Notes under the pieces: generated by a model
What the model was told of the DNA's origin: nothing
Database searches by the model: none
What the model saw: only the letters and a program-made list of their open reading frames with translations
Made by a program: the position numbers and the translations under genes
Shown: one piece after another, positions 1-31,564 of the stretch
How the letters are laid out: every line of letters starts with the position of its first letter
How positions within the stretch are numbered: the first letter of the stretch is position 1
Source: Bilabrum cf. latius
Lineage: Eukaryota
Length of the DNA stretch: 64,000 nucleotides
Assembly: GCA_965178125.1 (NCBI GenBank)
Contig: OZ237766.1
Location: 310,001-374,000 of the forward strand
Reading direction: 5' to 3'

Positions 1-1910
1 CTGATACAGGCATCGCAACACAGATATACCAATCGAAAGCATGGCCACCACAGTTCAGTCAGGCGCACCCAAGCCAGCTTCAAGCCCGTCCACGACTTGC
101 ATCAGACCAACCGGCTGATTTGCTCGCTAGCCAACCAGCATCTAGGCCTCAGTCAAAATCAGCGAGTGACCTTCACTGCTGTGTGGCATGGTGTGGAATC
201 ATTGGATGTGACACGGGCGATTTGAAGACAGACAGTATGCATGCATATCTCACGTTGTTCTTGGCCTCGATCTGCGCCCCCTTGGACAGCAACAGCTCGC
301 ACACGGATGCATGGCCATTCCTGGCAGCCTATGCGAGGGGGGTATTTCCGAACTGCGAGGGACTCATGAGGGGAGCAGACCTTAACACAGCTAGGCAGTG
401 CCCTGGTACAGGCATCGCAGCAGAAATACACCGATCGAAAGCATATCCATCACAGGCCAGTCAGGTGCACCCAAGCCAGCTCCAAGTCCATCCACGACTT
501 GCATCAAACCAACCGGCTGGCTTCCTCGCTAGCCAACACGTATCTAGGCCTCAGTCAAAAGGAGCGAGTGACCTTCACTGCCGCGTCGCATGTAGTGGAA
601 TCATTGGATGTGCCTCGGGCGATTTGAAGACAGACAGTATGCATGCATATCTCACCTTGCTCTTGGCCTCGATCTGCGCCCCCTTGGCAAGCAGCAGCTC
701 GCACACAGAGGCATGGCCCTTGGCAGCAGCCCATGCGAGGGGCGTGTCTTCATTCTGCGAGTAACTCTGGAGGGGAGCAGACCTGAACAAAGCTAGGAAG
801 GGCCCTGATACAGGCATCGCAACACAGATATACCAATCGAAAGCATGGCCACCACAGTTCAGTCAGGCGCACCCAAGCCAGCTTCAAGCCCGTCCACGCC
901 TTGCATCAGACCAACCAGCTGGTTTGATCGCTAGCCAACACGTATCTAGGCCTCAGTCAAAATCAGCGAGTGACCTTCACTGCTGTGTGGCATGGAGTGG
1001 GATCATTGGTTGTGACACGGGCGATTTGAAGACAGACAGTATGCATGCGCATCTCACCTTGTCCTTGGCCTCGATCTGCGCCCCCTTGGACAGCAGCAGC
1101 TCGCACACTGAGGCATGACCATTCAAGGCAGCATGTGCAAGGGGGGTGTCTCCATTCTGCGAATGACTCTGGAGGGGAGCAGACCTGAGCAAAGCTAGGA
1201 AGGGCCCTGGTACAGGCACCGCAGCAGAAATACACCGATCGAAAGCATATCCATCACAGGCCAGTCAGGTGCACCCAAGCCAGCTTCAAGCCCGTCCACG
1301 ACTTGCATCAGACCAACCAGCTGGTTTGATCGCTAGCCAACACGTATCTAGGCCTCAGTCAAAATCAGCGAGTGACCTTCACTGCTGTGTGGCATGGAGT
1401 GGGATCATTGGTTGTGACACGGGCGATTTGAAGACAGACAGTATGCATGCGCATCTCACCTTGTCCTTGGCCTCGATCTGCGCCCCCTTGGCCAGCAGCG
1501 GCTCACACACGGAGGCATGGCCATTCCTAGCAGCCAGTGCGAGGGGGGTGGTTCCATTCTGCGAGGGACTCATGAGGGGAGCAGACCTGAACACGACTAG
1601 GCAGGGTCCTGGTACAGGCATCGCAACACAGATATATCAATCAAAAGCATAGATACCGCAGGCCAGTAGGGTGCACCCAAGCCAGCTTCAAGCCCGTCCA
1701 CGCCTTGCATCAGACCAACCGGCTGATTTGATCGCTAGCCAACCAGCATGTAGTCCTCAGTCAAAAGGAGCGAGTGACCTTCACTGCCGTGTGGCATGGA
1801 GTATGGCCATTGGATGTGACCTGGGCGATTTGAAGACAGACGGTATGCATGCGCATCTCACCTTGTCCTTGGCCTCGATCTGCGCCCCCTTGGACAGCAG
1901 CAGCTCGCAC
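1..1910. repeat. Tandem array of ~402-bp units (99-nt ankyrin exon + ~303-nt intron), about 4.7 copies visible
   Basis: Near-identical blocks recur at 402-bp offsets (ORFs at 575, 977, 1379); some intron variants recur at 804 bp (1 vs 805, 403 vs 1207). Confidence 0.95.
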
Positions 1911-2286
1911 GCCAACTTCCAGCCGTTTGCTGCAGATTTAGCCAGTGCTGCCCACTGATGCTGCGCATCATGTCGTAATATTTTGTGATCAAATGCTCTT
2001 GTGTACCTTTACGTTGCGATGATTATGCGCAAATTCATTTATTTGCATGCATAAACCTACCTCAGCATCGTCTGTTCCCTCGATCGTAGCAACAACTTCA
2101 TCTCTGCCTAGCAATCCTTCAAGTTTTTCTTGATTGTTCAATGCATCATGCAATTCCTTTCCGAGCTAGGATAAAGGCCTGCAATAAAGGTAGAAATGAT
2201 CTAGGTGGACAACCAGTTGACATGACATCGTAGCCAAAACTCGGGTACTAGTCATGCTATGTTCTTCAAGCAAATGCACCTCACAT
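1..2286 (-). CDS. Modular ankyrin-repeat protein, paralogue 1 (multi-exon, 3' part runs off the window)
   Basis: Split start AT(2286-2285)|intron 2284-2179|G; cap exon 2178-2061; 99-nt phase-0 ankyrin exons at 1960-1862, 1558-1460, 1156-1058, 754-656, 352-254, each bounded by cag|...|gtgag and encoding e.g. NGDTPLAHAALNGHASVCELLLSKGAQIEAKDK. Two in-frame TAG. Confidence 0.85.
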
Positions 2287-2552
2287 GAAGCGAACGAAGT
2301 ATAACTCAGTATTATCCTTCCTATTTAGGCTCGTAGGCAGCTATGTCTTTGGCCGAAACCTCGGCGTCCAGCGGTGGTTCGGGCGGTTGCAACCATGCTG
2401 TTTGCCGCGCACTGCAAAAACGGAACTACTGCCCACGGGCGAACACAGCGTCTGAGTGCGAATAGATGTTGCCCCGAATCAATGGCGAACTTCGATGATA
2501 ACAATCAAATAAATAGACCTTGTCGACATGTTCAGCTCGTGCTCGGCGCCCA

Positions 2553-5500: not shown

Positions 5501-5870
5501 TTTTGGACTTCCGATTTGATTTCCCTGTACTTCGTTTGCTTGCTTCCGAGCTCGCTCCTCCTGCGGCTGAAGTGCGTGTTTCACTGGATGAGACGGGCGA
5601 TCGAGACCGGCCCGCACTGACACCACCACCCGCCACGGGCCAACCCTTTGCTTGAAACTCATCCGCAAATGATTCGGCCGGTAGGATAAAATATGTCGAG
5701 TCTTCATCTTCCTGGTGCCCGCCTTCTGGCAGCATCAGCTCTGCAACTGAACTTGAATCAATCCCGGCCGGGAGTACTGTCGGTTCACACGCATCCAGAA
5801 CGCTCCCACGACGAATATCGAAACGGGCGGCGAACACCCTTAGAATCGGCCAGCCTTCTGGAACTGACAT
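2553..5870 (-). CDS. AFI1: Afi1/MesA-like (DENN-related) protein with N-terminal Afi1 and SPA domains
   Basis: RVFAARFDIRRGS...AELMLPEGGH...STYFIL (Afi1-like) and RVYPYVSLS...GFVAGCTNPLF...WWDVAADV (SPA-like). ORFs 4860-5924, 3654-4814, 3024-3644 and 2553-2870 share one frame, joined through 4 TAG; ends TGA. First in-frame ATG at 5870. Confidence 0.8.
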
Positions 5871-6269
5871 GCCACCGGTTGCTGCAGCCAAAACTGTGTC
5901 CACGAATTCCCTGGGATCCAGCACGTCTTTGAGCCGGTGAGGTGCTTACGAATATTACTTGAAGGCCAATATAATAGGAATAATAGGCAGGGGACTCCTT
6001 CACTTGCAGTAGACTTGGAAATTTTATTCGGTGGATCCGCTGCTGACCGAACCTTCGCTAGTGAATTCGAAACGTTCGGCGTTTCGCAGCACAGCCACCC
6101 AGGTCCCCATTTGGGTGCAGCAAGGCCAATGTTGAGGTAAGATCTCTACAATAGCTCCAGCCCTGGATAGTGAACAAATGAAATGCTACGCGTTGACCAT
6201 GCAATGCACGATAATGTTTTGTTTCGTGCCGATACGCGCGAACATGCTGCTGCCAGCTTCTGCCCATCG

Positions 6270-9200
6270 ATGAACCGGCGATACCATCGACCCCTCGCTC
6301 ACCGCAGAAGGGCAGTATCGACGGCTGCCAGGCGGTTTAACACAAATACTCGTATGTTTGGAAGCTCTGCTAGGCGTATGGAGCGCGTTCTCGCAACAGA
6401 CCCCTTGGACAAGGCCGCTGCAGACATCCTGATTTCCAGGGGCCACGAAGTTGAGCTCTGGCCGTCCAGTCGTTCGCAAGAAGAAGTCATTGAGGCCGTC
6501 AAGGGATACGACGCCCTAGTTGTACGTAGGTAAGACGGGGTATACTCGCATATCGGCTCTTCGTGTAGTGCTAGCGGGTGCGATTCAGAAGCGTGCGACA
6601 CGTCTTGTGCCCGGCCTTGCAACTTGCCTTCGCAGTGGAACCCAGGTCACAAAGGAGGTGATTGATGCTGGTGATTCTTTGAAGATTATTGGCAGGGCTG
6701 GAACCGGGATTGACAACATTGATGTAGCCTCAGCCACCGAGAAGTGAGACGTGCCATTTGACTGCCGGATTATCGATTTGCGTCGCATCATGCACGCTTG
6801 TTTCGTTCGACCCCAGTGACACACTCCCATGCGTGCATGCCATTGATGCCATTTGGCGGCCCATGTCGGTCCAAATGCGTGGTGGGAGGGATTGCCGCCC
6901 GGTTGAGTTGCATCCACGCAAGGCGGAACAGTTGGGCTACGTTGCGAGGCAGTCGGCTTCATACAACGAATACTGCCCGTGCACAATTTCGAATGTATCG
7001 AATTTGCTAACCATAGTGCGCTAGGGCCTACGTATCGGCCTTAAAAGCCGGTCGTCGCACGCGGACCGCATTTTCACTCGTCACACAGTACCGTATCACG
7101 CAAGGCTCGCCACACCTCTTTCCATCGACCACTCGCTCCATCGCAGGGGCATCCTCGTGATGAACACTCCTGGAGGGAACACGCGAGCCGCCGCCGAGCT
7201 GGCCATCACGCTCATCATGGCGGTGGCCAGGCAGCTGCCCCAGGCCGTGGCATCGGTCAAGGAAGGCCGCTGGGACCGGAAGCTTTACATGGGCAGCGAG
7301 GTAGCGGGCAAGACCATCGGCGTGGTGGGCCTGGGGAGAATCGGCCTGGAGGTGGCGGAGTGGTGCAGGGGCGCGGGCATGGAGGTGGTGGGATTCGACC
7401 CGGTGCTCTCCAAGGCGGCGGCAGCAGAGGCAGGGATCGAGCTGCTTCCGCTCGAGGCACTGCTCTCGAGGAGCGATTTCATCTCTCTGCACTGCCCTTT
7501 GACCGCCGACACCAAGCACCTGATTGGGAGGGAGAGCCTGGCCCAGTGCAAGAAGGGGGTGCGGGTCATCAACTGCGCGCGGGGGGGGGTGGTGGACGAG
7601 GAGGCTCTTCTCGAGGGCATCAAGTCGGGGCACGTGGGCGGCGCGGCCCTGGATGTGTTCGAGTCCGAGCCTCCCACGGGGGCCGCCGCCGAGCTGGTGC
7701 AGCACCCCCTGGTGGTTGCAACCCCCCACCTGGGTGCCTCGACCCATGAGGCGCAGCTCACCGTGGCCAAGGCGGTTGCAACCCAGATCGCAGATGCCTT
7801 CGAGCATGGCAGGTACGTCGGCGTGGTGAACGCCTCGTTCATGGACCAGCTCAAGAAACCGGAACTTGTTCCCTACCTCTCCATCGCCGAGAGGCTTGGC
7901 CAGCTGCAGGCACAGCTCCTGCCCGGGGCACAACAGGTCAAGCAGCTCAGGGTGAGGCTGCAGGGGCCCGCCGTGGGGGAGCCTTCCGTGGCACAGGCCA
8001 TCAAAACTGCCGTCACGAAGGGCTTCCTGTCCTCCTTGTCCGCCAACTATGACGTGAACATGATCAACGCGGGCCAGGTCGCCAAGAGGGCCGGCCTGTC
8101 CGTGCAGGAGCTGACCAACGACTCGTCCTCCGGGACCTATTCCAACCTAATCACCGTGGAGGTGGACTCGTCTGACGCACAGGGCCAGCGGGGCGCCTCC
8201 CTCAGCGGCGCCGTCCTGAGCGGCGACCAGACCAGGCTCGTGGACGTGGATGGGTTCAGGGTGGACATCGACCCAGCGGGGCACATGCTCTTCTTCGAGA
8301 ACAAAGACAAGCCGGGCGTGCTGCGGGACCTGACCTCCGTGCTTGGGGAGGCTGGCGTGAACATCGCGTACTTTGGCCTGGGGAGGCACGAGGCAGGGGG
8401 CGAGGCGCTCGGGGTGGTGCAGCTCGATTCGAGTGTGAACGACGCCGTGCTGCAGCAGCTATCCGGAATCGATAACATGGAGCAGATCCGGCCGGTGCGG
8501 GTCACCGACGAGCGCGGCGCGGGCCGCATCCGGGCGGGGTCCCCTTACGATTCCGAGTCCACGGCCGAGGGCGGGCCCAGGCTGACCGTGCCGTCCTCTG
8601 CCGTGCGCAAGCCCGCGGCCCGCCCCGTGAGCCCCCAGTTCTCCTCCGGACCCACCAAGAAACGGCCCGGGTGGAACCTGAGCGCACTGGTGGACGCCGC
8701 GACCGGCAGGTCACACCGTTCCAAGATCGGCAAGGCGAAGCTGCGCGAGGCTATCGACGTGACTAGGAGGCTGCTTGACGTGCCCGATGACTACCGCGTG
8801 GGGGTGGTGCCCGCCTCCGACACAGGGGCCTATGAGATGGCCATGTGGACGATGCTGGGACAGAGGCCGGTGGATGTCTTCCACTGGGAGTCCTTCGGGA
8901 AGGGTTGGATGGGGGACGCTGGATCTCACCTTGGGCTCGAGGAGACCGGCCTGCGTGAGTTCAGCGCGCCGTACGGCGAGCTGCCCGACCTCTCGCAGGC
9001 TGACTGGAGCCATGACGTGTGCTTCACGTGGAACGGGACCACCAGCGGAGTAAAGGTCCCGAACGGAGATTGGATTCCGGATGATCGTGAGGGGCTGTCG
9101 TTCTGCGACGCGACCTCTGCCGTGTTTGCGCAGCACGTGCCCGTGCACAAAACCGACGTGCTGACGTATTCCTGGCAGAAGGTGCTGGGCGGCGAGGCGG

Positions 9201-9748
9201 CCCACGGTATGCTCATCCTATCCCCCCGTGCGGTGGATAGGCTTGAGACCTTCACTCCCCCCAACCGACCCCTGCCCAAGATCTTCAGGCTCACCAAGAA
9301 AGGCAAGCTGACTGAGGACGTTTTCAAGGGGGCCACTATCAACACGCCTTCGATGCTGTGCGTAGAGGATTACTTGGATGCTCTCCGGTGGGCGGAAGAC
9401 ATGGGCGGGGTGGACGGGCTGGTGCAGAGGGCCGACGGGAACCTGGCAGTGCTGCAGCGGTTCGTGGACGAGACGCCTTGGGCGAGTTTCCTGGCCAAGG
9501 AGCCGTCGACCATGAGCAACACGAGCGTGTGCCTGAACGTGGAGCTACCGGCCGACAAGATCAAGGCCATGGTTAGCCTGCTCGACGCCGAGGGAGTGGC
9601 CTACGACATCGGTGCTTACAGGGACGCCCCGCCAGGACTGCGTATCTGGTGCGGTGCCACGGTCGAGGCGAGCGACCTCGAAGCGCTCGTCCCGTGGCTT
9701 AAGTGGGCCTACAATGTCGTGTCCAGCGAGCCCGCCGAGAAGCCGTGA
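6270..9748 (+). CDS. PHGDH-PSAT: D-3-phosphoglycerate dehydrogenase (with ACT domain) fused to phosphoserine aminotransferase
   Basis: Exons ~6270-6529, 6636-6743, 7147-9748 (GT-AG introns rebuild VVRSGT and TEKGILVMN). Motifs [39 protein letters not shown] (ACT), then [40 protein letters not shown]. Start uncertain (6183/6270/6354). Ends TGA. Confidence 0.93.
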
Positions 9749-10108
9749 GTCTTACGGTTTTTTTGGCTTCGTTTTACAGATGAACGTGGGCCCGTTGCAC
9801 AGATATACCATGAAACGTATCTATTGTCTGGCATTCGGAAGACTGCAAATTCGGTGACTTCACAGACGCACACGATAGGGAGTCCTGGGAGCAAGGCTCA
9901 GAGTACATGATAAAATCTGGATCTATGGATCTAGATACGTATAGGCGGCAGCTATCTCTTATGCCCAGACAGCGGCGTTGCAAATCTAGCGACCTGTGCC
10001 CAACTGCAAGTACGAATAACGCCGGTACCTAGCCGACGTTTCTCGTTATTGTTTGTGCTGGGCTATCCGTTTTATTCAGACTATTTAATCAAATCGGCCT
10101 GAAATGCG

Positions 10109-13100: not shown

Positions 13101-13234
13101 TGCTGAGCGGCCTCGAGTGCTGCTACCACGCCGTGCTCAAAGCTTGCTTGCGCGGCCGGTCGCTGCTGACCAGTTGAGCAAACATGCGAAATTCTCCGCC
13201 CTTGATTGAGCTGCGTGCTGCTGTCTGCGTTCAT
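10109..13234 (-). CDS. TALE-class homeodomain transcription factor, long low-complexity N-terminus
   Basis: C-terminal LPEEAIETLLAWVVAHLHRPYPDADTKVLLAEQTKLPTQSIKNYLTNLRKR. One frame from ATG 13234 through TAG at 13022, 11333, 10940, 10919, 10550, 10115 to TGA 10109. Confidence 0.82.
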
Positions 13235-16360: not shown

Positions 16361-17595
16361 ATGAAGACCGTCATTGCAGCTCTCTCTATGCTAGCAGCCG
16401 TTGCGCTTGGCAAGCCCAAGGTGAGCAGCCGTGCTAGAGCTCCCCTACCGGGCAGTTGATGTTGCGCTCTGGTCCCATCACTTCGACCCAATGCTCCAAC
16501 CGCGAACATATCAACATCAGCACGATACGCAACCGAATACATTGTTTAAACTAAATTTCGTAGTGGCATGAGCTGGGATCGTACAGCTACGACGCCTTCA
16601 AGGCCGACTTCAACAAGCAGCACAGCGAGGAGCGCCGCGCCATCTTCGAGGAGAGGTTGCAGCACGTGATCGAGTTCAACCGGAACTCGGGCGCCTCCTA
16701 CAAGAAGGGCATCAACCACATGAGCGACTGGACCGCTGAGGAATTCGCGCGCGTTTCGAAGGGAATCAAGCGCACCGGCGACGAGCCCAAGGGCATGCCC
16801 CTGCCGGACTGGATCAGGAACGCCCCTCTGGCCCAGCTCCCCACCCACGTGGACTGGCGCGATCGCGGCGTGGTGACCGCCGTCAAGAACCAGGGCCACT
16901 GCGGGTCATGCTGGACCTTCGGCTCCACCGAGACGATCGAGTCCCACCTGGCCCTGGCCACCGGCAAGCTAATCAACCTGTCCCCGCAGCAGCTCGTCAG
17001 CTGCGTGGAGAACAAGAACCAGTGCGGCGGGTACGGCGGGTGCCAGGGCGCCACCGCCGAGATGGCCTTCCAGTACGTGAGCGATCACGGGATGGCGGAG
17101 GAATACACCTGGGGGTATGCCGCCGACACCTGGATGGGCAAGTCGAACGGGACCTGCATCGACGATCAGGTGCCCAAGACGGCCAACATGAGCGGGTTCT
17201 ACAAGGTGGACGCCAACGACGCCGACATGCTCACTCGGGCGTTGGCACTCGCGGGTCCTCAGTCCATCAGCGTGGCTGCCAACGTGTGGGGCGACTACGA
17301 TTCGGGGGTCTTTGACGGCTGCGACTTCAGCAAGGACATCGACATCGACCACGCCGTGCAGCTCGTGGGCTACACCCCCGACGCGTGGATCGTGAGGAAC
17401 AGCTGGAGCCCCTCCTGGGGTGAGGACGGATACATCCGCCTGAAGCGGTACCCCTCAGGCCAGGCGCCGTGCGGGGAGGACACCACCCCCCGCGATGGGG
17501 ACGGGTGCCCCGGGGGACCCTCGGAGGTGAAGGTCTGCGGCATGTGCGGGGTGGCGTACGATTCCGTGTACCCTGCCAATGTGAAGATGCTGTGA
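16361..17595 (+). CDS. Papain-family (C1A) cysteine protease, cathepsin L-like, copy B
   Basis: Exons 16361-16420 (signal peptide MKTVIAALSMLAAVALG) and 16564-17595. Motifs [22 protein letters not shown]; ends TGA. Confidence 0.95.
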
Positions 17596-17883
17596 GCGGG
17601 TGCATTGCACTGCTGAGCGCGGCACGGCCGCGATCGAGGTTGGCGCGTTGTGCAGCTGCATGCCAGACTGCCATGGGCGGGAATGTCTGCCGTTGGTTGG
17701 TCGGAGGTGTTCAGTTGTATGCATGTACAATCCATTCTTGAGGGGAAAGGAGATGCACCATTACCAGGCCACCGCGTAATGGTCTGGATCTTGGAAGTGG
17801 TTGCAACCTCATCTTCACAATTTACTCTGTCTAGGTTTCAAACGAGAACAAATTTGATCAAGCCGAATATACTATCGAAGGTG

Positions 17884-20297
17884 ATGTGAGTGCCCAGACT
17901 TGCTTGCATGGTTTGCTCCTGAAACGCATCACATTTTGGGTTCTGCGACCACGCCAGTTCTCGTGCTGCAATTGTACTAACTGCGATACCCGAAGGCCAT
18001 TGTCCGAGGCGGCGAAGCAAGTTCATCAAAGCCTCGGCTGTATTGACTCCCTTACTAAACTGCTCGGAATGGATGGAATAGACGAAATTCTTTGCGAGAA
18101 AGATGAAGTAAGACGAGCCACCATCCGTTGTATTCCAGCTGCAAGTCTCATATTGATTCGTTCAATATCGAGGAACACCCTAATACAAAGTATGGTATCC
18201 AATTGGTATGCAGAGCGGAAGGACTGCCCTAGCGACTGCTGCGGCAAACGGACATAGAGCTGCTTGCCAACTGCTGCTGGCGAAGGGGACGCACGTTGAG
18301 GCCAAGGACAACGTGAGATTTAGATGTTCTAGTGCGGCAAGTCTTGATAGCCCCCTTAACGTCATGCTAGCGTTTGAAGTGGTGGTTGACAGCGCTCACG
18401 CAAGACACAATCGTGACCACCTTTGATGGATCTAGCCGGTTGCCCAGAAGCTATCGTGCCACCATTGGGATGCATCACTGAAAGATTTGCCCACTTCATG
18501 CGTGCACGCGAATGGCCTACATGTCCGCTACGTTTTTCTCTTGGCACTCGCGTTGATTCTCAGTACGAAGACACGCCGCTAGCATTGGCTGCGTGGTACG
18601 GCCATGAAGACATTTGCAAGGCGCTGTTGGCTAGCGGGGCCGATGTATAGAATACAAACATAGTAAGACACAGATGAATGCCAGTGTAATAGAGTATGGC
18701 GTGCGCACTGGCTCTCGATCTGCGCCCGAGTCGCAGACACTGCAAAAGCTTACTGCAGCGAGTTTCGTCGCCGGCCTTGCGCTCCCAACTGCAGGCGTTC
18801 GAGTCACCGCTGGCACGTGCTGCCAGAACGGGTCATGCTTCAGTTTGCAAACTGCTCATAGAAAAGGGTGCCCAAGTTGAATCTGATAACGCTGTGAGTG
18901 GTCTCATGCTGATGGCAGTAGTGTTGGGCTGCTTGTCTCCACATTTTGGCGGATAACACTGCTGGGGTAATGGACAACAGATCATTCAGAACATGTTTGA
19001 TTGCGCAACTCATCTTCATGCGCCTGCACCCTTGCGAGTGGTACCCTTTGTGCCAGTGCGGCCATACTACCAGTATGCACAGCGCCCGGACGATACCATG
19101 AGCCCACATCCGATGTCTCGCGCAGGATGGAAACACATCGCTTGCTTTGGCCGCGATGCACGGCCATGAGTCTGTATGCCAGCTGTTGCTATCAAACGGA
19201 GCCAATGTTGATGCCAGGAATAATGTGAGGCTGATACACACGCGCACGATAGGGTTTGCAACAAGCAGTACAACTGCAGTACAGCTGGCTCGACACATGA
19301 CAGATAATCACATGCGGTTACCGCGCAATTTGAGCGAACTGGCCATGCACGTGCGGTAGTCTAGGACACATTGTACGAATTAGAGAGTTTGTGCATCCAC
19401 TGCCAAGCTCGCTTCTCTCGGCCAGACGATGCTAGTGTGCTCGCAGGCGGACATGGCACCCCTCCACATTGCCGCCTATTTCGGACAACCTGGCCCATGT
19501 AGCGTTCTGCTGAGGGCTGGTGCCAAGGTCAACGACATGGACGAGGTGAGAGCGTAATTGTGAGTAATAGCACCGCGCATTATGGTTGTTTTGTGACGTG
19601 ATATTTGCTTGGTAGCACATCATGCGACTCGCAGTACGATCGAACTCCGCTGCACGTAGTTGCGTCTACCAAGAGCCCGGAACGGAGCATAGTGTTTGAT
19701 CTTCTAGAGTTCGGGGCTAAATAGCTCGGGCCCGGTGTCATCGAGTCGTAGAAGGATTGCGTGAGGCATGTGTCGGGCACGAGATGGTGGTCGTCAAATC
19801 CAGGATTGTGCATCCTCTCGCTATCCATCGACAGAGTCCGAACCCATGGGTGCCAATGGCATATGCAAATGCTTCACTACAATGTAACCCAACAAAATTG
19901 ACCGCCACTATATGTATCCTACCCTCGATGGTTCTGAGTGCAGGATGGCCACACAGCGCTTGAAAGGGCAGTGGAAGGAGGCCACGTCGGCATAGCCAAG
20001 CTGATGGAGACTTACACTCCCAAGTGGGGCCACATGGCCAAATGGAGGAGAGCGGTCGATGCCAAGAGGGACGCTGGAAGAGTCTTCAGGGCAGCTGCTG
20101 AGGGTAGGCCCATGGAACTGGCAAAGAGGCTGAGACTGGGCAAGCTGGCAGGCGGGCTGGAGATCAAGGGCGAGGTGGAGGACGGGGCGGGCGGGACCAG
20201 GGTGGTGGGACCAATAGAGGCAGTCATGCTGGGTGGGCATGATTGGTGCCTAGAAGTGCTGGAAGAAGCGGCCAAAGGGCTCGTTTCTCAGTCATGA
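17884..20297 (+). CDS. Modular ankyrin-repeat protein, paralogue 2
   Basis: AT(17884-5)|intron with TACTAAC|G 17996-18107 cap exon; 99-nt exons 18214-18312, 18564-18662, 18795-18893, 19126-19224, 19447-19545; 126-nt exon 19635-19760; terminal exon 19944-20297 (...VFRAAAEGRPMELAKRLRLGKLAGGL...). Three in-frame TAG; ends TGA. Confidence 0.82.
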
Positions 20298-20329
20298 CTC
20301 ATGATCCATTGTACCGCATGATTCAAGCT

Positions 20330-23106
20330 GATCCCCTTGCGACCATAACTGTCCCAACCAACTGCAACTGTCCCAAGATTCAAAAGCGACCACTTCTTGA
20401 GCTCATACAGGTCTCAATTCTAGAGCTATGCAAGCATCCTCCTCCAGTTCTAAAGAATCATCAATACTCGACGCAATTGATGACTCGGATACTCGGGCTA
20501 TCCTTCAGGTGTCTGTGGATGACGTGAATCGTGTGCTCGCTTGGCGCACGGCCTTGGAGCAATCGGCAGAAGAATGCACAGCTGAGCAGCCTGAGATGCG
20601 ACTATATGAGGCGCAGCAAGCAGATTACATAATTTACAAGCAGAAGCTGCAGGCCTGGAGGGAAAAAAACCCCGGTAAGGTTCAAAATGACAGTGAAATC
20701 TACCGAGAGATTCAAAATGAGGTGTACCCAGAAAAGACGTTTAGCGCTGTCCGGAAGCGATTCCAGCGAATCTAGCAAAGATTAACGTGTCCCCTACAAG
20801 AGTTGTGTTGGCGAACAGATTTGCCCTAGTATATTGAACGGGCACTTGCGAAGCTGGTCATATTGCGAGAGGATGAGAAGGTGCCGTTCACGCTTGAAGG
20901 ACTGCGCCGAACTGCAACAGGCCTTCGCAACGACTTTTGTGCTGGTTCACACAAGGATGGAGTGCCACTATCGCGTGTGTGGTCAACCAGATTTCTAAAG
21001 GCTCATAACCTGAAGGATTTGCAAGGCGAAGAGAAGACAATCAATCGTAGCGTGGCGGAGAGCCACACGTGCTTGCTGGACTGGTTTGGCGAAGGAGCAG
21101 CAAAACGAGGCCTGGTACTCAATACTGAGCTTGGCGTCGTCGTGTCAGGGACGTGCATCTATCACGAACGATTGTAGTTAAACATAGATGAGACTGTGAT
21201 CATAATGCATGCCCAGCCAGGGTAGGGCGCAAGGGTTGACGGGGCGGACCGTCTAGTGGTCAGGGCCGAATCGCCCCGTGCTGCGCTTCGCGCGACGCAT
21301 TTTTCCAATACAAACGTATCATTCGTTCCTGTTGTATCAGCAAAGGATGGAATTGTTGCTGGCCTTCTCGTTTTCCGCTACGATGGCAAGTCTCAAAAGG
21401 TCAAACGCGAGATCCAGCGCGAGCAGGAATATGTGGCAGCCCGGTTGCAACGTGCACAAGCCCAGCGCGATGCGGGCAAGCTCGACGACGACGGCCTGAA
21501 GGCGGAGCTCGAGGATATTCTAGCTGAGGTAAGGCTATCTGGTAATGTTGTAGACCCCTCGTCTGTCCAGAAACTCTTCTTGGTGCTAGCCAAGACGGAC
21601 ATCGAGCTCCTCGACATCATCGTGTTCTGTGCGACCCCCTCCGGCTACAGCAACGTCGGGTCCTTGTCCCTGCTGCTTCCAAAGATCGTAGAGTACGCAG
21701 CTAGAGTGCGAAGGGAAGAGGGACTCCCTCCCACAGCTAGAGTACTGCTCACGATGGACAACCACTCGACGCATGACCAGCGGAGCCTCAGGAAGTTCTG
21801 CGCTGCCAACAACATCGACATCGAGCTCCTCCTTCCAATGAGCACCCACTTCCTGCAGCCCCTGGACGTCGCGTGCATGTCGTCCTTCAAAGCAGAGCTT
21901 CGTGGTGTTAAGAAAGACTTCTGTGTCTATCTGAGCTAGCTTCATTTCATGGAAGCATTCATGGCGTCTGCCCCAGAGGCGAAGAAGTCGGCACTAGCGA
22001 AGGCGTCGTGTGACGCGATCGGGGAGGAGTGGATCGCACCGCTGGTCTTGACCTGCGCAAGCCACAGCTTTCGAGCTTCGAATGCTGCTAGTGGATTCAG
22101 GAAGTGCGGACTTCTCCCGTTCAACCCTTCCGTTGTTGTTGACATGGACAAAGTCAAGCAGCACAGGGCCACGCTGCAGAGGGCCCGGGAGGGGGCCAGT
22201 GGTAGTGAGCTGTCAGACGTAGCCAAAATACTGGAGAGTGTCCCGACAGAGTCAGGATCTTTCGTGAAGAGTACTACGGCTGCCAGTGGAGCAGGCGCAT
22301 CTGAGCCGTAGTCATCATCCTCGTCTGCTGTGCTTGGGCCTGCCACGGCTGACAACCTCGGGGGACTGGCGAGCGCCCAGCGCGTGGTGAGCGCCCATGA
22401 TGCCCTGGCGAAGAGACGACCCAACACGGCTGCATTCCTGAGATTAGCAGGTCTGGGGGTTCAAGCAAAGATTGAAAGCGCAGCTCGGGCACAACAATCT
22501 CAGAAAAGGCGACCAAGGCTGAAGGGGCTGCAAGGCAACCGTGGGGCCATCGGGCCCCGGGGGGGCGGGGGTGACGCCGCTTAGCTGCGGAAAAATCAGA
22601 TGCGCGACCGCCCACTCTAGGATCAGTCCAAAGGTGAGATTATTGAGCAGCTTGAGGAGGCTAGAGTCAACCTGGACGCCATGAGAGCTCAGAATCAGGC
22701 CCTCAAGGACAAGATCGCGAAGATCTAGGCTGCAAGCAACAAGAGGGCCATGCCAGCTTCAAAAAAGCGTCGAACTTAATAAATTTATATATTATTATAC
22801 TGTCATTATACTAAAAACCTGAAAAAATGAGTGAAATACGAGATATTTGGGACTTTGAAGCTGGGACAGTTGTGATTTTTACCAGACGCGATCATGCCGG
22901 CCGCCAAGGCCGCCATCTTTGGTCGGTCATAGCTTGAAGAGAACATGCCGTCCTGAAAATCTGGTTACAGTTTTGAAATCTTCTTATAAACCTGCTTCAT
23001 CATCGAAAAGGATGAGGCCCTAGTTGGACATTATTGCTCCGAATTTTGCGACTGAAGTTGGGAATTTTGCCGTTCAGCTTGGGACAGTTATGGTCGCAAG
23101 GGGATC
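20330..23106. mobile_element. Full-length pogo-superfamily (Tc1/mariner-related, DD35D) DNA transposon
   Basis: Perfect 28-bp inverted repeat GATCCCCTTGCGACCATAACTGTCCCAA at 20330-20357 and 23079-23106 (includes the probable target site); subterminal ACTGTCCCA copies near 20367 and 22862; encloses a transposase. Confidence 0.92.
20428..22779 (+). CDS. DDE_1-type transposase, 783 aa when UAG is read as Gln
   Basis: LNIDET, VLLTMDNHSTH and THFLQPLD motifs with 35 residues between the 2nd and 3rd Asp; nine in-frame TAG, no frameshift; ends ...SKKRRT-TAA. Confidence 0.9.
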
Positions 23107-23225
23107 CGGATCTGTGACCACCTGTCTGCGCCGATATCTCTCCCAAATATCCTAGTCTAGCTTAGCTTCGATAACGCGCGGAGATGAATACATGAAAAAT
23201 GCATGGATATGTTAACGTTGCATGG

Positions 23226-24230
23226 TTAGCCTCGCACAACTTGCGCTGTGCCGCGCTCCCCGCACACTACGGAGCCCCCCTAAGCGAAAATCAGCGAGTT
23301 GCACACGGCGCTCTGCGTGTACACAAAGCCCTGAATGGTGACCGTATCGACGAGGCAGGAATGCAGCATACTGCAACATTCTTCTGCGAGCGGCTCGGTC
23401 AGAACCAGTTCATCCGCGCTGGATGCTGTAGTGCTATCTGTAGACCCACCGCTGTCCCCCTCCCCCTCTTCCCCATCCTCTCCATCGGTGCTGCTGCTGG
23501 TGGTGGTGGTACTGCCCACTTCCACTCCACCGGCCCGCAGGGTGTTGAGGAGCAGAGTGGTCAGCGGGTTGGTTTGGTTCTGGCCCACGCCGCCGAACCC
23601 GTCGTCCTCCGGCAGAAGTTCCGCTTCAATTTGCGCGGCGCCGACCAGGTTCTGCCTCGCTGCGATGGCCCTGGCGAATCGATCGTCCGCCCTCTGCCTC
23701 ACTAAGTCCTCAGAAAGCTCATCAAACTCGTCCAGACTCTCGATGTACTGTTCCGTACAGTCACTTCCGGTTTCTTCCTCCGTGGCACCGGCAGCGCTCG
23801 CTAGCCCGCCCACGACGGCTGCGTCCACGCTCGCCCCGCCGTCAAACTCACTCTCGGACGCAGCCGCCCGCAACAAGTCATAGTAAGATGAACCTTTGTC
23901 CCCAGCGGCTTCGGTACACGCGAATGCCCTGATTCGGTTGCGGCAGTCTTGGGATTTGGCACCGCACCAGCCACCCGAACTAACAAGCGGGCTTAACGAA
24001 GACAAATCCGGCTGCCCGCCCGAATCGATTCGAAGCTACTGACATAACATGGCAGCAGTGACTCTTGCAGAAAAGTCAACGCTTGTGCCGGGTCGATTTC
24101 TGGAGGCCACCTGCTGATTGGCTAGCTCTGGGCAAAAAGCTAGCTCGTCTTCCAGAAGACGCTAACAAGCATACGATTGGAATATTATAAGTTGAACAAG
24201 AGACAAATGAATGAATTGCCGGACACTCAT
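23226..24230 (-). CDS. Hypothetical, possibly secreted Cys-containing protein (~334 aa)
   Basis: ORF 23280-24005 extends through TAG up to MSVRQFIHLSLVQLIIFQSYAC (signal-like) and down to TAA 23226. No family recognised. Confidence 0.55.
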
Positions 24231-24890
24231 GCCGGTGAATTCGCGGACAAACTGATTGAATCCACTCAATCCAGGCGTTGGTCGCGGTACAGTGCACTGC
24301 ACCTTCCGAACACCAAGATTGTGTTTGCATCACTGCAACTGTGTTCAACCATCCCGCGTGATAGCCCTCATCATAGGCACGTTCGATTTATCTACTCAGC
24401 TCAGCCCGCTTCAAGTCGAATCTTCGTAACAAGCAGAGCGTTCCGTCAGATGCAGGTCCCTGAGAATGAGATCGGGCGCAGCACCCGCTCGAGGGGTAGG
24501 CTCAGATACGACGTAGCGAAGCGGGGGAGAGAGCGTTCGAGAAGGCCAGTCCAGTGAGGAACGAGCAGGAGAGGAGGCTATGGGATGGGCGAGAAGGACG
24601 AGGGCGGAGCCAATTTAGTCTATACAGTTTACTAAACAATTTATTAGCGAGTCACACCGCAGCAGCAGTCCAGCTGTGGCCAAGGCGGTGCATCGACAAG
24701 TTGATCGACCCCAGCCCGCCCTGACACGGACCATCAGCACTACAACATGGCAAGGTATATCATGTAAGCCCCCAAAACAATAATGCATCTTCTTGGGGTA
24801 GCACCACATCTGGGTAGCACAAGTCCAGTAGCGTGCACATGTTTGCACCGAGCAAATCTCATTTATTGCCGGACCAGGGCACCCGCAGGC

Positions 24891-25997
24891 ATGGGCCATG
24901 ATAGTGCTGGTGCGTTCTTACCTCTAGCAGCTGCTGTTATATTTTGCTATACAGTCACAGCCTGTGTCGTCTTAGCTGGCTGCAAGAAAGGCCAAGGATT
25001 AGCCGAAGATCTCGACACGAGCTGCGTGGTTGGCGATGACTTTATCCTGTAGAACTGGAACGGAAGCCTGGTTTTTCCTCCTCGGCTAGTTTCTCGGGAT
25101 GACGGAGGTTTCCTGTACGGAAAGCAAATAGCAGGTCCGTTCGCATCGGACGATGAAGTTAGAGAGATGATCGCTTCGTAGTCCACCAAGCTCTCTAGCT
25201 GGACACTGGACGCAACCGATGGTGTCCTTGGAGTCGATCCAGATATAGGAAATAAAACTGTTTGGCAGTATCCTGTCCAGGTCAACGGAGTTCGTATTTC
25301 GATTACTGGAAGACTTCCGGAGGGATCGCGTGATGAGGCTTACGCGGCATTCATACTCCAAAATAGGGACTACTGTGACACTGACGCGGCTCAAGGAAAT
25401 GTATGGTATGAATCTAGAGACTGGATGCCTGAGGCAGGGATCATGATCGGGACATCGGGTGCTGTGCTCGGAGGCTCGTTAGCAATCCTGGCATTCATAC
25501 TGTACGTCTTTCAGACTATAGACGGAAACAAGGTCAAAGGAAGGGTGACTGACATATGCCTTGTCCCCTGTTGGTGCGCACTATTCGTATCTATCGTGGC
25601 TTTCATGTGGATTGGGGGCCTTGGCATTACAGCTGGACTTCCGGCATTTTCAGGTTCGAATTGGTGGGCCGTGAACTTGCTCAGGTTGAGTCCGCAATCT
25701 AAAGTACCTTTTATTTCCGGCTGCCTGTGCTACTTTAGTTACTTTGTGATTGCGCTTGTGATGGCCGCTGGCTATTTGGTCATCACCTGCGCAGATGGCT
25801 GTGCCATGGTTTCAGTCTCCTCGAAAGCCTTAGATGAGTGGCAGAAGAGCCACGCCGCACTTAAGAAAGAAGGGCTTTAGGAGGTAACGCGAAACAGCGC
25901 GGCGGCACAGCCACCGGACATCTAGTGGGACAGCAACCCGGTTAGCGCGGAGCTGTAGGAGCATGACCATGGAGGTCACGGTGACAGCAGCGCCTGA
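24891..25997 (+). CDS. Hypothetical multi-pass membrane protein (~368 aa)
   Basis: One frame from ATG 24891 through five TAG to TGA 25995; hydrophobic N-terminus and about three hydrophobic segments in 25425-25800. Confidence 0.65.
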
Positions 25998-26667
25998 GCC
26001 AAGGATACTATTTCTAGCAGTACTGCCTTCGTTTTCATACAGGATTTCTTACATCTGTCCAAACAGGCTAAGGCGAGTATGCCAGCGCACCAGACTGACT
26101 GCCTCCGGTCCAAGCTGCCTCTTTGCCCACTGTACTGGATGGCAACAGTCGGTTACGCAACCTCGCGGTGATTCAACTCGATTCATAATGCAATTTATTA
26201 CCGTCATCGCAGACAGCCAAGGTAAGCCGGGGGATGGGGAGGGGGCAGCCGTAGCAGCGTTCTACGCGATACGGCTAGCATGATGCGGCAGATTCTCCTC
26301 CTCATCAGGCGGCGCTGGGTGCCCCTGGGCATTGCGCACCGCCACTTGCATACTCTGTGGATATATGCCTCCGCATTATCCATGCACCCATATTTTAATT
26401 AGACCTTGTTCTTGCGTGCGTATCCGGAGTCAGGGGCCACCCCACCTGGCTGAGCCTATTCAGTCTATGCTTGTCCCCAACTTGTTACTACCCGGCTAGG
26501 GAGGTTTGAAAACCAATCCCCCAGAAGGTGACCCTGATGAAGGCTTTCCAGGGGGCCATCCGTGGGGTCCCTCGCAAGTCTACTAGTACGGAACTTCAAG
26601 CTGAATTGCGCGGCGCCAACATTAATGCGGCAGAAAGATTCGGCCGGAACAATTAACTGATTACAAT

Positions 26668-28602
26668 ATGTCCAAACAAGGATCTTTCGCAAATCCGAAG
26701 GACTTCGTTGGATCCATCAAGAATGCTGCTTTCAAGGTACTGGAACCACCTTCAAGCGAGAAGTATCGCAAGGTAGAGCACTTGATCCTGGTTATTGGTG
26801 GTGCTGCAATCACGACGTACGTGCTCGTGCGTGCCGTACAGGCCGGCCCGCAAGCGGTTCTGAAGAGCGTAGTCGGCTCAGTCATATCAGTTGCATCTGC
26901 CGTGCCCGGAGTTCGTGGCGCAATCGACAAGCAGATCGAGGGAAGCCTCAAGGGAGTGGAACACGAAGTGCTCGGCGATGGAGACGACGAGACTGCCATC
27001 ACAATCCCGACACAGAGCCGCTCGCACGACGAGGTGATCGCATTGACGCAGAAATATGGCGTGTCGGATTCCTTTCAGCGTGGCAAGTCGCTCGGCGGCA
27101 TCTACTACGAGCTCCAAGGCGACATGTCGAAAACGCACGCCGCCATGTGGGCGCAGTTCTCGAAGACAAACGCGCTGTTCCCCGCTTTGTTCAGGGGAGT
27201 ACGTCGGATGGAAAGCGAGCTGTTGGCGATGATCCTCGCGATGCTCACGGGCGGCTCCAAGATGGCGCCAGTGCTGGACTCCCTGCCGGGCAGCACAGCC
27301 GGCGCGCAGGCCGCCGGCGGGGGCGCATCATCATCATCAGGAGAAGGAGACGCAGCGAAAGCAATTCTGGTCGCTTCTGCAGAGGACCGGGAGCGCATCG
27401 AGGAGGAGGACAAGGCCAACCGCACGCTGCCCTGGGTGGCCTCGAGCCCCGTGCTCCCCTTCGCCGAGAGGAGGCCCGCCCTGCATGGAGAGGGCCTGGG
27501 GGAGCTATGTGGGATCGTCACATCCGGGGGAACAGAATCCATCGCCCTGGCGATCAGGGCATACCAGGCGCAGGGGGAGGCGGAGCGTGGGATCGCAAGG
27601 GACCAAGCCAACATCGTGTGCAGCCAGGCAGCCCACGCAGCGCTGGACAAGGCCTGCCACTTCTACGGGATCCAGCTGAGGAAGATCCCAGTCGACGAGA
27701 ACATGCAGCTGGACCCAGCCAAGGCGGAGAAATAGATCGACTCCAACACCCTCTGCATCTTCGGCTCGGCGGTATCCTTCCCGCACGGCGTGGCGGATGA
27801 CATCCCGGCCCTGGGCCGGATCGCCATCAAGCACGGCGTGGGTCTACACAGCGACAACTGCCTCGGGGGAGTGCTGCTGTCGGCAATGCGCGGCGCCGGG
27901 ATCCAGGTTCCGCAGTTCGACTTCGCCGTGCCGGGAGTGACGACCATGTCTGTGGACGTGCACAAGTACGGGCTTGCCTCCAAGGGGGCATCCGTGGTGG
28001 CCTTCAGGACGAGGAACCTTCGCTGCCACGTGTTCTCTGCTGTGACCGACTGGTCCGGGGGATTCTACACCACCCCCACCGCGCAGGGCAGCAGGTCAGG
28101 CGGCGCAATCGCGCAGGCGTGGGGCAGCCTGGTGCGCATGGGGCAGGCGGGGTACGTGTCCATGGCCAGGAGAGTCCACGCACTCGTCACACAGCTGGCC
28201 ACGGAGATCCCCAAGATCCCCGGTCTCAAGCTGCTGGGCCGCCCGGACGCCGCCGTGGTGGCCTTCGGATCCACCGGTGGATTCAACATTTACGCCTTCG
28301 CCACGAGGCTCAAGGATAAGCACGGGTTCGGGCTGCCAACACTGCAGAAGCCCTCGGGGCTGCACGTGTGCGTGACCCTTCGCCTTGAGGACTGCGTGGA
28401 GGAGATGCTGGAGGCAATGCGGGAGTGCGCCGCGTACTGCGGGGAGCACCCGGAGGAAGGGGCGAAGGGTGCCGCGGGGGTTTATGGGACCACTTTCGCC
28501 CTGCCCGACGGCGAGGTGGAGAAGACGCTCAAGCTGTACGACGAGATGATTCTGGCGGTGAAGCCGGGGAGCAAGCACCCGCTGTGGAGGGAGAGGGGAT
28601 AA
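26668..28602 (+). CDS. SGPL1: Sphingosine-1-phosphate lyase (PLP-dependent)
   Basis: N-terminal TM segment, TSGGTESI, AHAALDKA, FPHGVADDI, HSDNCLGG, SVDVHKYG, GSRSG. Halves joined in frame by one TAG at 27733; ends TAA. Confidence 0.93.
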
Positions 28603-28788
28603 GTGGGTGGATTCCATTCTCTGGGAGTTACATTATTTTTCTATATTCAGCGCACACATTTCACTCAACCAGTAGCAGGGAGGCAGCCTCAATGCTGGTT
28701 GCGTCCAAAATCGATGAAGAAGATGACTAGAGCTGGGAACGCGACTGAGGTCGAAGATTCGATCCACATTGCATCCGCCGCCAGTACC

Positions 28789-31564
28789 ATGTAAGTGCGA
28801 TACTATAATACTTTTTAGGCAGCGTATCTAGATATCAGCCTGCAGCACTCGCTGCCAGTCTAAATCCTGACCAGTTCTTGCGCAGGTCGCATTCTCAGCT
28901 AGCAACAGATTTGCACGGCATGTTGCACGACATAGGACTTCTAAGAGATATCACTACGAGGTATGATGTTTCCGCTGCAATCGAGGAGGAAGACAAAACA
29001 TGGGTAAGCTCATTGAATTCAGACTAGACAATAGAGTTTTGGATCGTTCAGTATCGTATTGTTGCTCAACTTACGTACAAAATTGAGTGCGCAGTATAAC
29101 CGGACAGCTCTGTGCAAAGCTGCTATCGATGGGTAGATAGAGGCGTGTGAGCTGTTAATTGCCTGCGGTGCCCAGGTCGAGGCGCAAGACAGTGTGAGAC
29201 ACTCACATTGCGACAGGTTCCTCCCCCAGTGGGTCCGCCAAATGTGGACATAACCCCGGTAGTAGGGCGATCGCATTATTATTACTCCATACACTTGTGG
29301 GTAGTAGGTGGTATAGATGCGAACTACTACGCTGCATCAAGGGTCAAGTTCACGAGTGGCCAATCACCCCTACCTGCCATTGCCGACTCGGAGTGATAGC
29401 ACGCCATTGGTTGCGCCTATAACTATATAACAACGCGTGCGCAAATGCTACGCAGGAAGGAGCCACCCCTCTCATGCTGGCCGCCAAGAATGGCCACGCC
29501 TCCGTGTGCGACCTGCTCCTAGCCAAGGGAGCGAATATCGATGCCAAGGATTCCGTGAGCACTTGGCTTCGCCTCCATCTTTTCGGAAGGGGTATGTAGC
29601 CGGTAGTGCAAGTCCTAATCATGCAATATCATTTCGATACCCGCGTTACGTATGTTAGCCTAGTCTAGCAGCGCGGAAATACACCCCTGTTGCAAGCTAC
29701 CGACTATGGGAATGCCTCTGTGTGCGAGCTGCTGCTGTCCAAGGGAGCGGACATTGAGGCCAAGAACGAAGTGAGATATAACGCACAAAAGAGGATTACA
29801 TTCGACGCGAAACGGGTGGCTCGTATGCGTCTTGAAGCATACGCGCACAGGGCTACGGCCTGCTGGCAATAAGTGTTGGCGCGCAAAGCCATCATGCTCA
29901 CTTCCTCCACGGATTTGTACAAGTGCGTTGCATTGCAGGACGGAGAAACTGCGCTATTCCTGAGCATTGATAGCAAGCATGCGGCAGTGTGCGAGCTGTT
30001 GCTGTCCAAGGGGGCAAGTATGGATGTTGAGGACTCGGTAAGATCCAATCTATCCATAGTGTTGAGAACTCTTTAGGTGGCCTAAATGGGTTTGCCATGA
30101 GCATAGTCGTAGGGTTGCACGAGCCTACGGTACTTGATTCGCAATAAATTCCGCTCTCAATGCTGTTGAGCTCCCGTGCAGAGTGTGACGCAGGATGGAA
30201 ACGCACCCCTCGCATGGGCTGCCAGAGAGGGTCTTGCCTCCGTGTGCGAGCTGCTGCTGTCCAAAGGGGCGCGGGTCGACGCCTAGAACAATGTGAGCTA
30301 GCTATGCATATCGATGTCGAAAACGCGGCACCGAATCTCCGATGAGTCCATGCAAACCTATACTCTCAGAGCCTGGGTGACATTAGGATACGCAAACGGT
30401 ATTGGATATTCGCGGGGCGCTACGTCGCCGTACGCATCCGGGTATACAGCCATGGTGGCTGTCCGTGATAACACCACGCACGCAGGAGGGGGTCACACCA
30501 CTTGCACTAGCTGCTATGGTTGGGAATACTGATGTGTGCAGCTTGTTGCTTTTGAAAGGGGCGAAGGTCGACGAGAGTGAAATGGTAAGCAATTGGGCCT
30601 GCAAACGTTGGGAAGAAGTGGATTGTCAACTATGATCGAATCGATGATCCTTTTGGATTCAGTCCGCGACTACATAGTTCTCTGTTATTGCAACTTAAAA
30701 TATCCAGACAAGTATGAATTTCTTCGCAGGGCGGCAATACCCCGCTGATTTGGGCGAGTCTTTGCGGGCATGCCCCTGTGTGTAAACTTTTTCTTTTGAA
30801 GGGGGCCAACCTTGAGGCAAAAAACTGCGTGAGATGGCACTTTAGGGGGACCTTCGGTCCTTAACGGCATGCGTCAGCTCAAGCTTGCGATGGATTCAAG
30901 CAGCACATGCTGTCGAATGCGTATAGTGCCTGTCATGGCAGACTGGTTACTTGCCCAGCTCCAGCAAAAAAGCTACCCTTCAGACCAGTAACTCCTATGG
31001 TTGCATCATTTATGCAGTATGGAAACACTCCCCTTGCAATGGCTGCAATATACGGCCATGCTTCGGTGTGTAGGTTGCTGCTTTACAACGGGGCTGACAA
31101 GAATAGCTGCAACAAGGTGTGACAGGATTGTTTGGGCGTTCGGGGGACTTCTATGCTACTGATATACCCGTATGTAAGTACGTCCTATAGCCTATCCTAT
31201 ATTCTGTCCGGATCGTTAGCAGAACGGCAAATTTCCATCGCAACAAGCAAAAACTGCTTCACTTGCCCAAAGCATTGAAACATACACATCTCGATGGGTA
31301 TGCCTTGTCTCGTGGCGAAGGGCAGCCGAGGCCAGGCGAGATGCAGCCATGGTGTTTCAGGCCGCAGCAGAGGGTAGACCGCTGGAATTAAGCAGACGAC
31401 TGAGGCTTGGGAGGCTCGCTGGAGGCCTCCATATGAAGGGTGAGGTCGAGGATGGGGCGGGGATTAGCAGGAGGGTCAGTCCATTGGAAGCGGCCAAGCT
31501 GGGGGGGCACGACAAGTGCATCAAAATACTTTAGACTGCTATCTTGCTCAAACTGGTCAGATGA
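28789..31564 (+). CDS. Modular ankyrin-repeat protein, paralogue 3
   Basis: AT(28789-90)|gtaag...cag|G 28886-29003 cap exon; eight 99-nt exons starting 29095, 29456, 29672, 29939, 30194, 30486, 30730, 31018; terminal exon 31223-31564 homologous to that of paralogue 2. Three in-frame TAG; ends TGA. Confidence 0.85.

Follow-up and report, generated by a model that had tools for sequence, protein, structure and literature searches.

A family of one-repeat-per-exon ankyrin genes in Bilabrum cf. latius, putative modular binding proteins

Genes that place each repeat of their protein on an exon of its own are known already, as exon-per-repeat ankyrin genes in vertebrates and as candidate receptor genes in the brown alga Ectocarpus. 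In vertebrate ANK1, ANK2 and ANK3, many of the 24 ankyrin repeats of the membrane-binding domain are encoded by single 99-bp exons, so that the layout is not unprecedented for this fold; these are single conserved scaffold genes with a fixed repeat number and large extra domains. The Ectocarpus papers describe ROCO-LRR (leucine-rich repeat) and NB-ARC-TPR (tetratricopeptide repeat) candidate receptors with one repeat per phase-0 exon, the LRR exons measuring 72 nucleotides (nt) (PMC3341825, PMC11378527). Here we analyse three ankyrin genes (g1, g2 and g3) in a stretch of 64,000 nt from Bilabrum cf. latius, hereafter the window (GCA_965178125.1, contig OZ237766.1, positions 310,001-374,000 of the forward strand). 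An earlier note on this DNA had interpreted them as a candidate combinatorial recognition system and invoked the Ectocarpus precedent, which is indeed in print; the interpretation itself is partly supported. In our assessment, the three genes probably belong to a multigene family that is intact, transcribed and lineage-specific, encodes small modular ankyrin proteins with a binding role and diversifies in the germline.

Unlike the vertebrate ankyrins, the present genes form a multigene family, and their small products consist of repeats only, in numbers that vary. Designed ankyrin repeat proteins (DARPins) likewise have an N-cap followed by n internal repeats of 33 residues and a C-cap, whereas the present family is natural, carries a cysteine at repeat position 18 and has, in place of a simple cap, a long conserved module at its C-terminus. 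Variable ankyrin repeats with a conserved C-terminal box also occur in the large ASB (ANK-SOCS box) and poxvirus ANK-PRANC families; here, by contrast, Pfam finds neither a SOCS nor an F-box or PRANC domain in the terminal exon, and its module appears ankyrin-like. With the Ectocarpus receptors, the family has in common a fixed-length phase-0 exon for each repeat, here of 99 nt and ankyrin type (PMC3341825), as well as tandem expansion, a large family and variable residues on the ligand face (PMC3341825, PMC11378527). We found no description in the literature of an exon-per-repeat ankyrin gene family from a protist or alga, which does not prove that none is in print.

Gene structure and unit duplication

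A scan for exons bounded by AG and GT, together with direct reading, recovered the three paralogues where the earlier note had placed them (Table 1). A cap exon (118, 112 and 118 nt in g1, g2 and g3, respectively) is followed by at least five, six and eight ankyrin exons. All 19 internal exons are in phase 0 and 18 measure 99 nt, in agreement with the note; a 126-nt exon of g2 is the exception. Predicted protein lengths are approximately 362 residues for g2 and 417 for g3. The ankyrin exons of g1 score 56-73 bits with the family hidden Markov model (HMM), and each of three single exons tested passed the Pfam Ank (PF00023) cut-off of 21.1 bits (25.7, 43.1 and 32.1 bits), covering profile positions 1 or 2 to 32 or 33 of 33. 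Because single exons align to this profile nearly over its full length, exon borders coincide with repeat borders, as had been proposed. A six-frame search of the window with the family HMM retrieved only the 18 known 99-nt exons and weak matches in an ankyrin-BTB gene, whose repeats score far lower and all lie within one open reading frame (ORF) of 1999 codons. The claim that the layout is specific to the family is borne out by this gene and by the neighbouring genes, which yield unspliced contigs over their covered parts: the family is intron-rich within an intron-poor setting.

Table 1. Coordinates of the ankyrin paralogues, their in-frame TAG codons and other features of the window
Feature	Position	Strand	Details
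g1	2286 to beyond left window edge	minus	cap 2178-2061, 5 ankyrin exons inside window
g1 start	2286-2285	minus	predicted; 'AT' before GTGAGG donor; cap begins M-P-L-S
g1 ankyrin exons	1960-1862, 1558-1460, 1156-1058, 754-656, 352-254	minus	99 nt each, phase 0
g1 tandem array	1..1910	minus	4.8 copies of 402-nt unit, cut by window edge
g1 TAG codons	2168-2166, 331-329	minus	cap; ankyrin exon
g2	17884-20297	plus	cap 17996-18107, 6 ankyrin exons
g2 start	17884-17885	plus	'AT' before GTGAGT donor
g2 ankyrin exons	18214-18312, 18564-18662, 18795-18893, 19126-19224, 19447-19545, 19635-19760	plus	last exon 126 nt
g2 terminal exon	19944-20297	plus	117 codons + TGA
g2 TAG codons	18648-18650, 19722-19724, 19749-19751	plus	last two in 126-nt exon
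g3	28789-31564	plus	cap 28886-29003, 8 ankyrin exons
g3 start	28789-28790	plus	'AT' before GTAAGT donor
g3 ankyrin exons 1-4	29095-29193, 29456-29554, 29672-29770, 29939-30037	plus	
g3 ankyrin exons 5-8	30194-30292, 30486-30584, 30730-30828, 31018-31116	plus	
g3 terminal exon	31223-31564	plus	ends at TGA 31562-31564, reading through TAG 31532-31534
g3 TAG codons	29134-29136, 30284-30286, 31532-31534	plus	last one in terminal exon
D-3-phosphoglycerate dehydrogenase ORF	7025-9748	plus	907 codons
DDE_1 transposase ORF	20401-22779	plus	792 codons, 9 TAGs
ORF with 48-nt repeat	38198-40333	minus	711 codons; tandem repeat at 38648-38846
RCC1-HECT ORF	50647-56814	plus	2055 codons, 64% G+C
TPR/CLU-like ORF	57611-64000	minus	2129 codons, 52% G+C

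The g1 array shows how units were added. Its 402-nt unit consists of a 99-nt ankyrin exon and a 303-nt intron (Tandem Repeats Finder period 402, 87% matches), and the introns are mutually 85-94% identical. The array border falls inside the first ankyrin exon, a signature of in-register unequal crossing-over between repeats. Long plus-strand ORFs opposite g1 raised the possibility of coding on that strand, where the position of the stops varies from unit to unit. A search of positions 1-32000 against Rfam gave no match, so that the conserved g1 introns show no sign of an RNA gene. No other part of the window matches any of the 16 introns of g2 and g3, which suggests that these two genes are older. 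An origin of the introns from introners or repeats was rejected on the same observation. Exon-plus-intron duplicates are still recognisable in two relatives, L004 and L069. Unit duplication is the likely mechanism by which the family grew: the layout would have arisen by tandem duplication or unequal crossing-over of exon-plus-intron units, still under way in g1, and the family may be intron-rich because one ancestral inter-repeat intron was multiplied in this manner within an otherwise intron-poor genome. As the units are 99 nt long and in phase 0, repeat number could change over evolution without frameshift. The frame-safe exon change envisaged in the earlier note is thus allowed by the architecture, and gain of units has occurred in g1, but neither skipping nor exon-number polymorphism was seen.

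Relatives of the family were sought in metagenomes. A single protein as query retrieved none and a looser alignment (A1) was unsuited, but a small alignment (A2) worked and gave 91 relatives, from which 80 loci from four records were kept; G+C content is 0.47-0.59 in the 28 of these with printed values. The window-derived repeat HMM detected 88 family repeats lying wholly within 39 of the 80 loci, 68 of them as 99 nt flanked by AG and GT. Several of the 20 exceptions resemble terminal-exon half-repeats, which are preceded by AG but lack the GT, or else repeats whose acceptor is displaced. Family exons of the relatives also carry in-frame TAG (20 of 2244 codons). Since the relatives keep both the layout and the TAG codons, these are lineage traits and not assembly oddities. 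No exon gain or loss was found in nine cross-record locus pairs (97.65-100% identity), each of which gave one collinear match, although this test is weak because few overlaps span several repeat exons. In the pairs L006/L013 and L009/L078, the differences (5 of 5 and 7 of 7) are confined to 40-50 nt inside the terminal exon; such clustering could reflect paralogue conversion or assembly chimeras and was not used as evidence.

Variable positions and the C-terminal module

Variation among the repeats is concentrated at few positions. Per-position entropy peaks at positions 1, 3, 8, 11, 12, 31 and 33 in the window repeats (n = 18) and at 1, 2, 3, 8, 11, 12, 31 and 33 in the distinct exons of the relatives (n = 61). 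Six of the family's most variable repeat positions are those which we take to be the randomised, target-contacting positions of DARPin design. Judged from these alignments, the variable positions correspond to the canonical ankyrin binding face. Position 18, in the second helix, is a cysteine in 18 of 18 window repeats and in 55 of the 61 exons of relatives; the ankyrin consensus has valine there. Because variation concentrates on the target-binding face, the protein partners most likely differ from one family member to another.

The selective regime is less clear-cut. In the g1 array, pairwise Nei-Gojobori ratios of nonsynonymous to synonymous divergence (dN/dS) are 0.32-0.68, with dS of 0.24-0.49 and an intron divergence of 0.05-0.15. 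At the six binding-face codons dN/dS is 0.49 vs 0.26 elsewhere, values that are pairwise estimates from small counts. Classical positive selection (dN/dS > 1) was seen neither in the g1 array nor at the face codons. The DARPin-like repertoire suggested in the earlier note is therefore upheld in that variability lies on the binding face, whereas dN/dS below 1 and the lack of a signalling domain speak against it.

One pattern in g1 weighs against the reading we favour, because it is not what duplication with subsequent drift alone would be expected to produce. Ankyrin exons 2-5 vary more than the introns (28 of 99 against 39 of 253 columns, Fisher p = 0.0097), and this excess, which includes synonymous sites, sits in codons 1-23, with third positions the most affected (13 of 23). 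In these codons 25 of 69 columns are variable compared with 39 of 253 in the introns, a comparison that is descriptive only, as the boundaries were picked post hoc. The excess possibly stems from sequence exchange with dispersed paralogues that share exon homology only, or else possibly from homogenisation of the introns while the exons were kept different. L004 and L069 do not show this pattern, their exons being at least as similar to one another as their introns.

The terminal exons of g2 and g3 share 51% identity, and no Pfam family matched the cap and terminal exons at E <= 1. An AlphaFold (AF2) model of the terminal exon, built with a 48-row alignment, reached a predicted local distance difference test score (pLDDT) of 90.6 and predicts half an ankyrin repeat, a 40-residue helix, a helix pair, a hairpin and another helix pair. 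In Foldseek, its top matches were all ankyrin proteins, but weak (E at least 0.088), and the ESM Atlas gave ankyrin-type look-alikes only. In most top matches, VIA-align superposes the stretch from residue 46 to residues 109-117 on a pair of ankyrin repeats, with Z of 6.2-9.3, a root-mean-square deviation of 1.3-2.0 A and 54-62 residues aligned. Given this superposition, the 'distinctive terminal domain' of the earlier note would be a divergent ankyrin pair and not a separate fold. By sequence it nonetheless forms a sharp family, without Pfam match.

In a library of 1.84 billion representatives, the module has homologues in 105 clusters at E <= 1e-3 and in 59 at E <= 1e-10; five of the 105 are long proteins matching the ankyrin half-repeat alone. 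The 48-row alignment has six invariant and 12 nearly invariant columns. In its homologues the module lies at the C-terminus, after varied N-terminal parts: Pfam assigned five of 40 homologues to ankyrin-type families (two above the cut-off) and three to DUF285, and the other 32 had no match. Most module matches are short, as expected from standard-code gene calling on single exons, and a homologue search set to longer proteins gave three matches. A single-sequence AF2 model of the homologue P0007 was unusable (pLDDT 45.4).

In-frame TAG codons, transcription and neighbouring genes

Under the standard code, the three genes contain eight in-frame stops, all of them TAG (two in g1 and three each in g2 and g3), spread over six exons, a terminal exon included, and one cap. 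Neither TAA nor TGA interrupts these genes, frameshifts are absent and every splice site is intact. If TAG is taken to encode a residue, long intronless ORFs of 2129, 2055, 1999, 1130, 1045 and 1021 codons emerge in the window. In-frame TAGs, 94 in all, occur in 14 of 14 long ORFs, which terminate with TGA (10) or TAA (4). TAG codons are spanned by Pfam RLD (RCC1-like) and BTB matches and by homology to sphingosine-1-phosphate (S1P) lyase, for example at 27733-27735 (S1P lyase), 51502-51504 (an RCC1 blade) and 46766-46768 (BTB), and an unspliced contig covers the one in S1P lyase. At the ends of ORFs, S1P-lyase homology stops about 16 residues before TAA, and the HECT match reaches its final profile position before TGA. 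Homologues of the g3 terminal exon extend beyond the position aligned with its TAG, and the end of g3 given in the earlier note, at the TGA further on, is correct.

Since the window resolves into long ORFs with TAGs inside conserved domains, TAG is a sense codon, and TAA and TGA act as stops; read with TAG as sense, the three genes are intact. UAG-only nuclear reassignment has been described for Iotanema (to Gln) and for a rhizarian (to Leu), and the window resembles the Iotanema-type code in that its conserved genes contain in-frame UAG and still terminate at UAA and UGA (PMC5304391). UAG-only reassignment is a rare type of nuclear code. The TAG-sense code is the most surprising feature of the window and lies outside the ankyrin finding proper.

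TAG is quite probably decoded as glutamine. In an RCC1 blade motif it occupies a site that is Gln in five of the six remaining blades, the TAG in the g1 cap corresponds to CAG in g3, and, among the relatives, five TAGs occur in a terminal-module column with Gln in 72 of 74 rows. Three results weaken this assignment: the likelihood in the relatives ties Arg (-128.2) with Gln (-129.8), the S1P-lyase TAG aligns to Leu and Phe in two solved homologues, and the BTB TAG aligns to Ala, Val, Asp or Thr. For the TPR region of the 2129-codon ORF, the homologue search gave generic TPR proteins only and was uninformative on the code. TAG use is very uneven, with 37 TAGs in this ORF (40 CAG and 39 CAA) and six in the RCC1-HECT ORF (72 CAG). 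ARAGORN found no tRNA genes in the window.

Contigs of four public runs (X5, X6, X7 and X8) were aligned to positions 16500-31700. Of 20 joints, 15 are listed, and all joint counts and negative results given here are among those listed. Twelve of them, from X6, X7 and X8, are GT..AG joints exactly at predicted introns. In g2, each of the seven introns after the cap is seen (7 of 7 in X6, 5 of 7 in X7 and 3 of 7 in X8), the joint from the cap to the first ankyrin exon (18107 to 18214) in both X6 and X7. In g3, the first five of nine introns are seen (5 of 5 in X6, 3 of 5 in X8 and 0 of 5 in X7); an X7 joint runs from 30824 to 31018 with five letters between. TAG-bearing exons are kept in the spliced contigs. 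Exon skipping, which the earlier note had thought possible, was not observed: no listed joint skips a family exon, and an X6 contig of 871 nt (record 8) contains the g2 cap and all six ankyrin exons in order, in listed pieces without extra letters. The length of a 1324-nt X6 contig matches the presence of all eight g3 exons. Contigs drop rare isoforms, so that this test is weak.

Two odd joints, 30015 to 30235 (AA..CT) and 30274 to 20043, fit paralogues, because their ends are not splice sites and their depth is far higher. With the contigs stacked on the terminal exon, up to 18 at position 20135 in X6, they point to more strongly expressed paralogues elsewhere. Transcription is called into question by the labels of the runs, as X6, X7 and X8 were taken as RNA by guess only, no run is on record as RNA and X6 is labelled 'probably DNA'; had the runs been DNA, the joined forms could be retrocopies. 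Contrary to a DNA origin, run depth tracks genes, and the S1P-lyase contigs of X6, X7 and X8 all end at 28647-28649. X5, a separate data set whose cover ends at about 28882, contains the unspliced g2 locus with 0 differences across 16969-20180.

In each of the three genes the start codon is predicted to be split by the first intron (AT/GTRAG ... AG/G), the first G of the cap exon completing ATG, followed by P-L-S in g1 and g2. There is no in-frame ATG upstream in g1. This arrangement is opposed by upstream in-frame ATGs in g3 and by the absence of a split-start joint among those listed; the spliced g3 contigs start at 28886. Nevertheless, because the distant relative L008 has the same AT/GTGAGA and M-P-L-S cap (L008:49-50), the split start is probably real.

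The window is eukaryotic, with a G+C content of approximately 52-68%. X5 and X6 contigs that match the ORF with a DDE_1 transposase domain differ from it by about 2%, as expected of other copies of a multicopy element. A cysteine-protease gene has a GC..AG joint at 16748-16837, in X6 only, which removes 88 nt (not a multiple of three); X7 and X8 contigs are unspliced there, and this is the sole other joint in the aligned region. In the 907-codon ORF, residues 39-480 correspond to D-3-phosphoglycerate dehydrogenase (2-Hacid_dh, PGDH_inter and ACT), whereas the C-terminal ~400 residues have no Pfam match at 1e-5 and look aminotransferase-like by eye, so the product is possibly a fusion of two serine-pathway enzymes. 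The 711-codon ORF contains a 48-nt tandem repeat (4.1 copies, 99% matches) that encodes a 16-residue protein repeat.

Function of the family and alternative readings

The protein would form one continuous ankyrin solenoid built from an N-cap exon, n single-exon repeats and the conserved C-terminal exon. Its constant module, common to other repeat proteins, may provide a shared function, either capping or contact with a common partner. The members are probably cytosolic and, in the reading we favour, bind different partners through repeats that diversify in the germline.

It could instead be that these are adaptors, whose variable repeats, ankyrin here and DUF285 or LRR-like in other members, pick targets while the conserved module docks onto one shared machine, as with SOCS-box, F-box or PRANC proteins. 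The tightness of the module as a sequence family, its invariable position at the C-terminus and the differing N-terminal parts that precede it would all suit such a role. We nevertheless consider this unlikely, since the terminal exon contains no Pfam box domain and its fold is simply ankyrin-like, so that the module may be a mere conserved C-cap; moreover, as most matches are short fragments, the architectures are uncertain. A link of the module to ubiquitin ligases is pure conjecture.

A further and rather unlikely proposal takes the C-terminal module as the mark of a new protein superfamily for intracellular recognition in this protist lineage. Its repeat arrays, interchangeable and made of single-exon ankyrin units in some and of DUF285 or LRR-like units in others, would give fast-evolving specificities and the module would couple them to a common effector. 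The excess of exon variation in g1 would then represent exon-targeted exchange among dispersed paralogues, that is, germline cassette conversion.

That the genes constitute a combinatorial repertoire, with immune-like receptors diversified by exon skipping, alternative splicing or rapid exon shuffling as proposed for Ectocarpus, we regard as unlikely. Several features would fit it: symmetric phase-0 exons in multiples of three, repeat numbers that differ among paralogues, the young tandem array and the exon excess in g1, hypervariable positions on the binding face, the contig pile-up pointing to many expressed paralogues, and the published precedent. The absence of skipping joints, dN/dS values in the g1 array and at the face codons, and the collinear locus pairs all count against it. 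The genes also differ from the Ectocarpus receptors (PMC3341825, PMC11378527) in that no GTPase (ROC-COR), NB-ARC, TIR or kinase domain was found by Pfam in the cap and terminal exons or in the 40 homologues, the family HMM detected no relic exons, inverted or antisense, within introns of the window, neither positive selection nor alternative splicing was seen, and the host genome is intron-poor and uses TAG as a sense codon. As the tests against a repertoire have low power, this reading is weakened, not refuted. That the genes are decaying, as transcribed pseudogenes with nonsense mutations, is suggested only by the eight TAGs under the standard code and was rejected as highly improbable, given that every stop is TAG, the splice sites are intact and TAG is in frame throughout the window, inside conserved domains, and in the family exons of relatives.

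Any count of family members must start from the UAG-sense code of this organism and its relatives. Annotation under the standard code would take each member for a pseudogene or fragment it, and most library matches look fragmented in this way. The family also shows how one intron may multiply through unit duplication in an intron-poor genome. If its members are diversifying binders, they would be a second natural example, independent of brown algae and built on another fold, of repeat-per-exon modularity in recognition, and a natural counterpart of engineered ankyrin binders.

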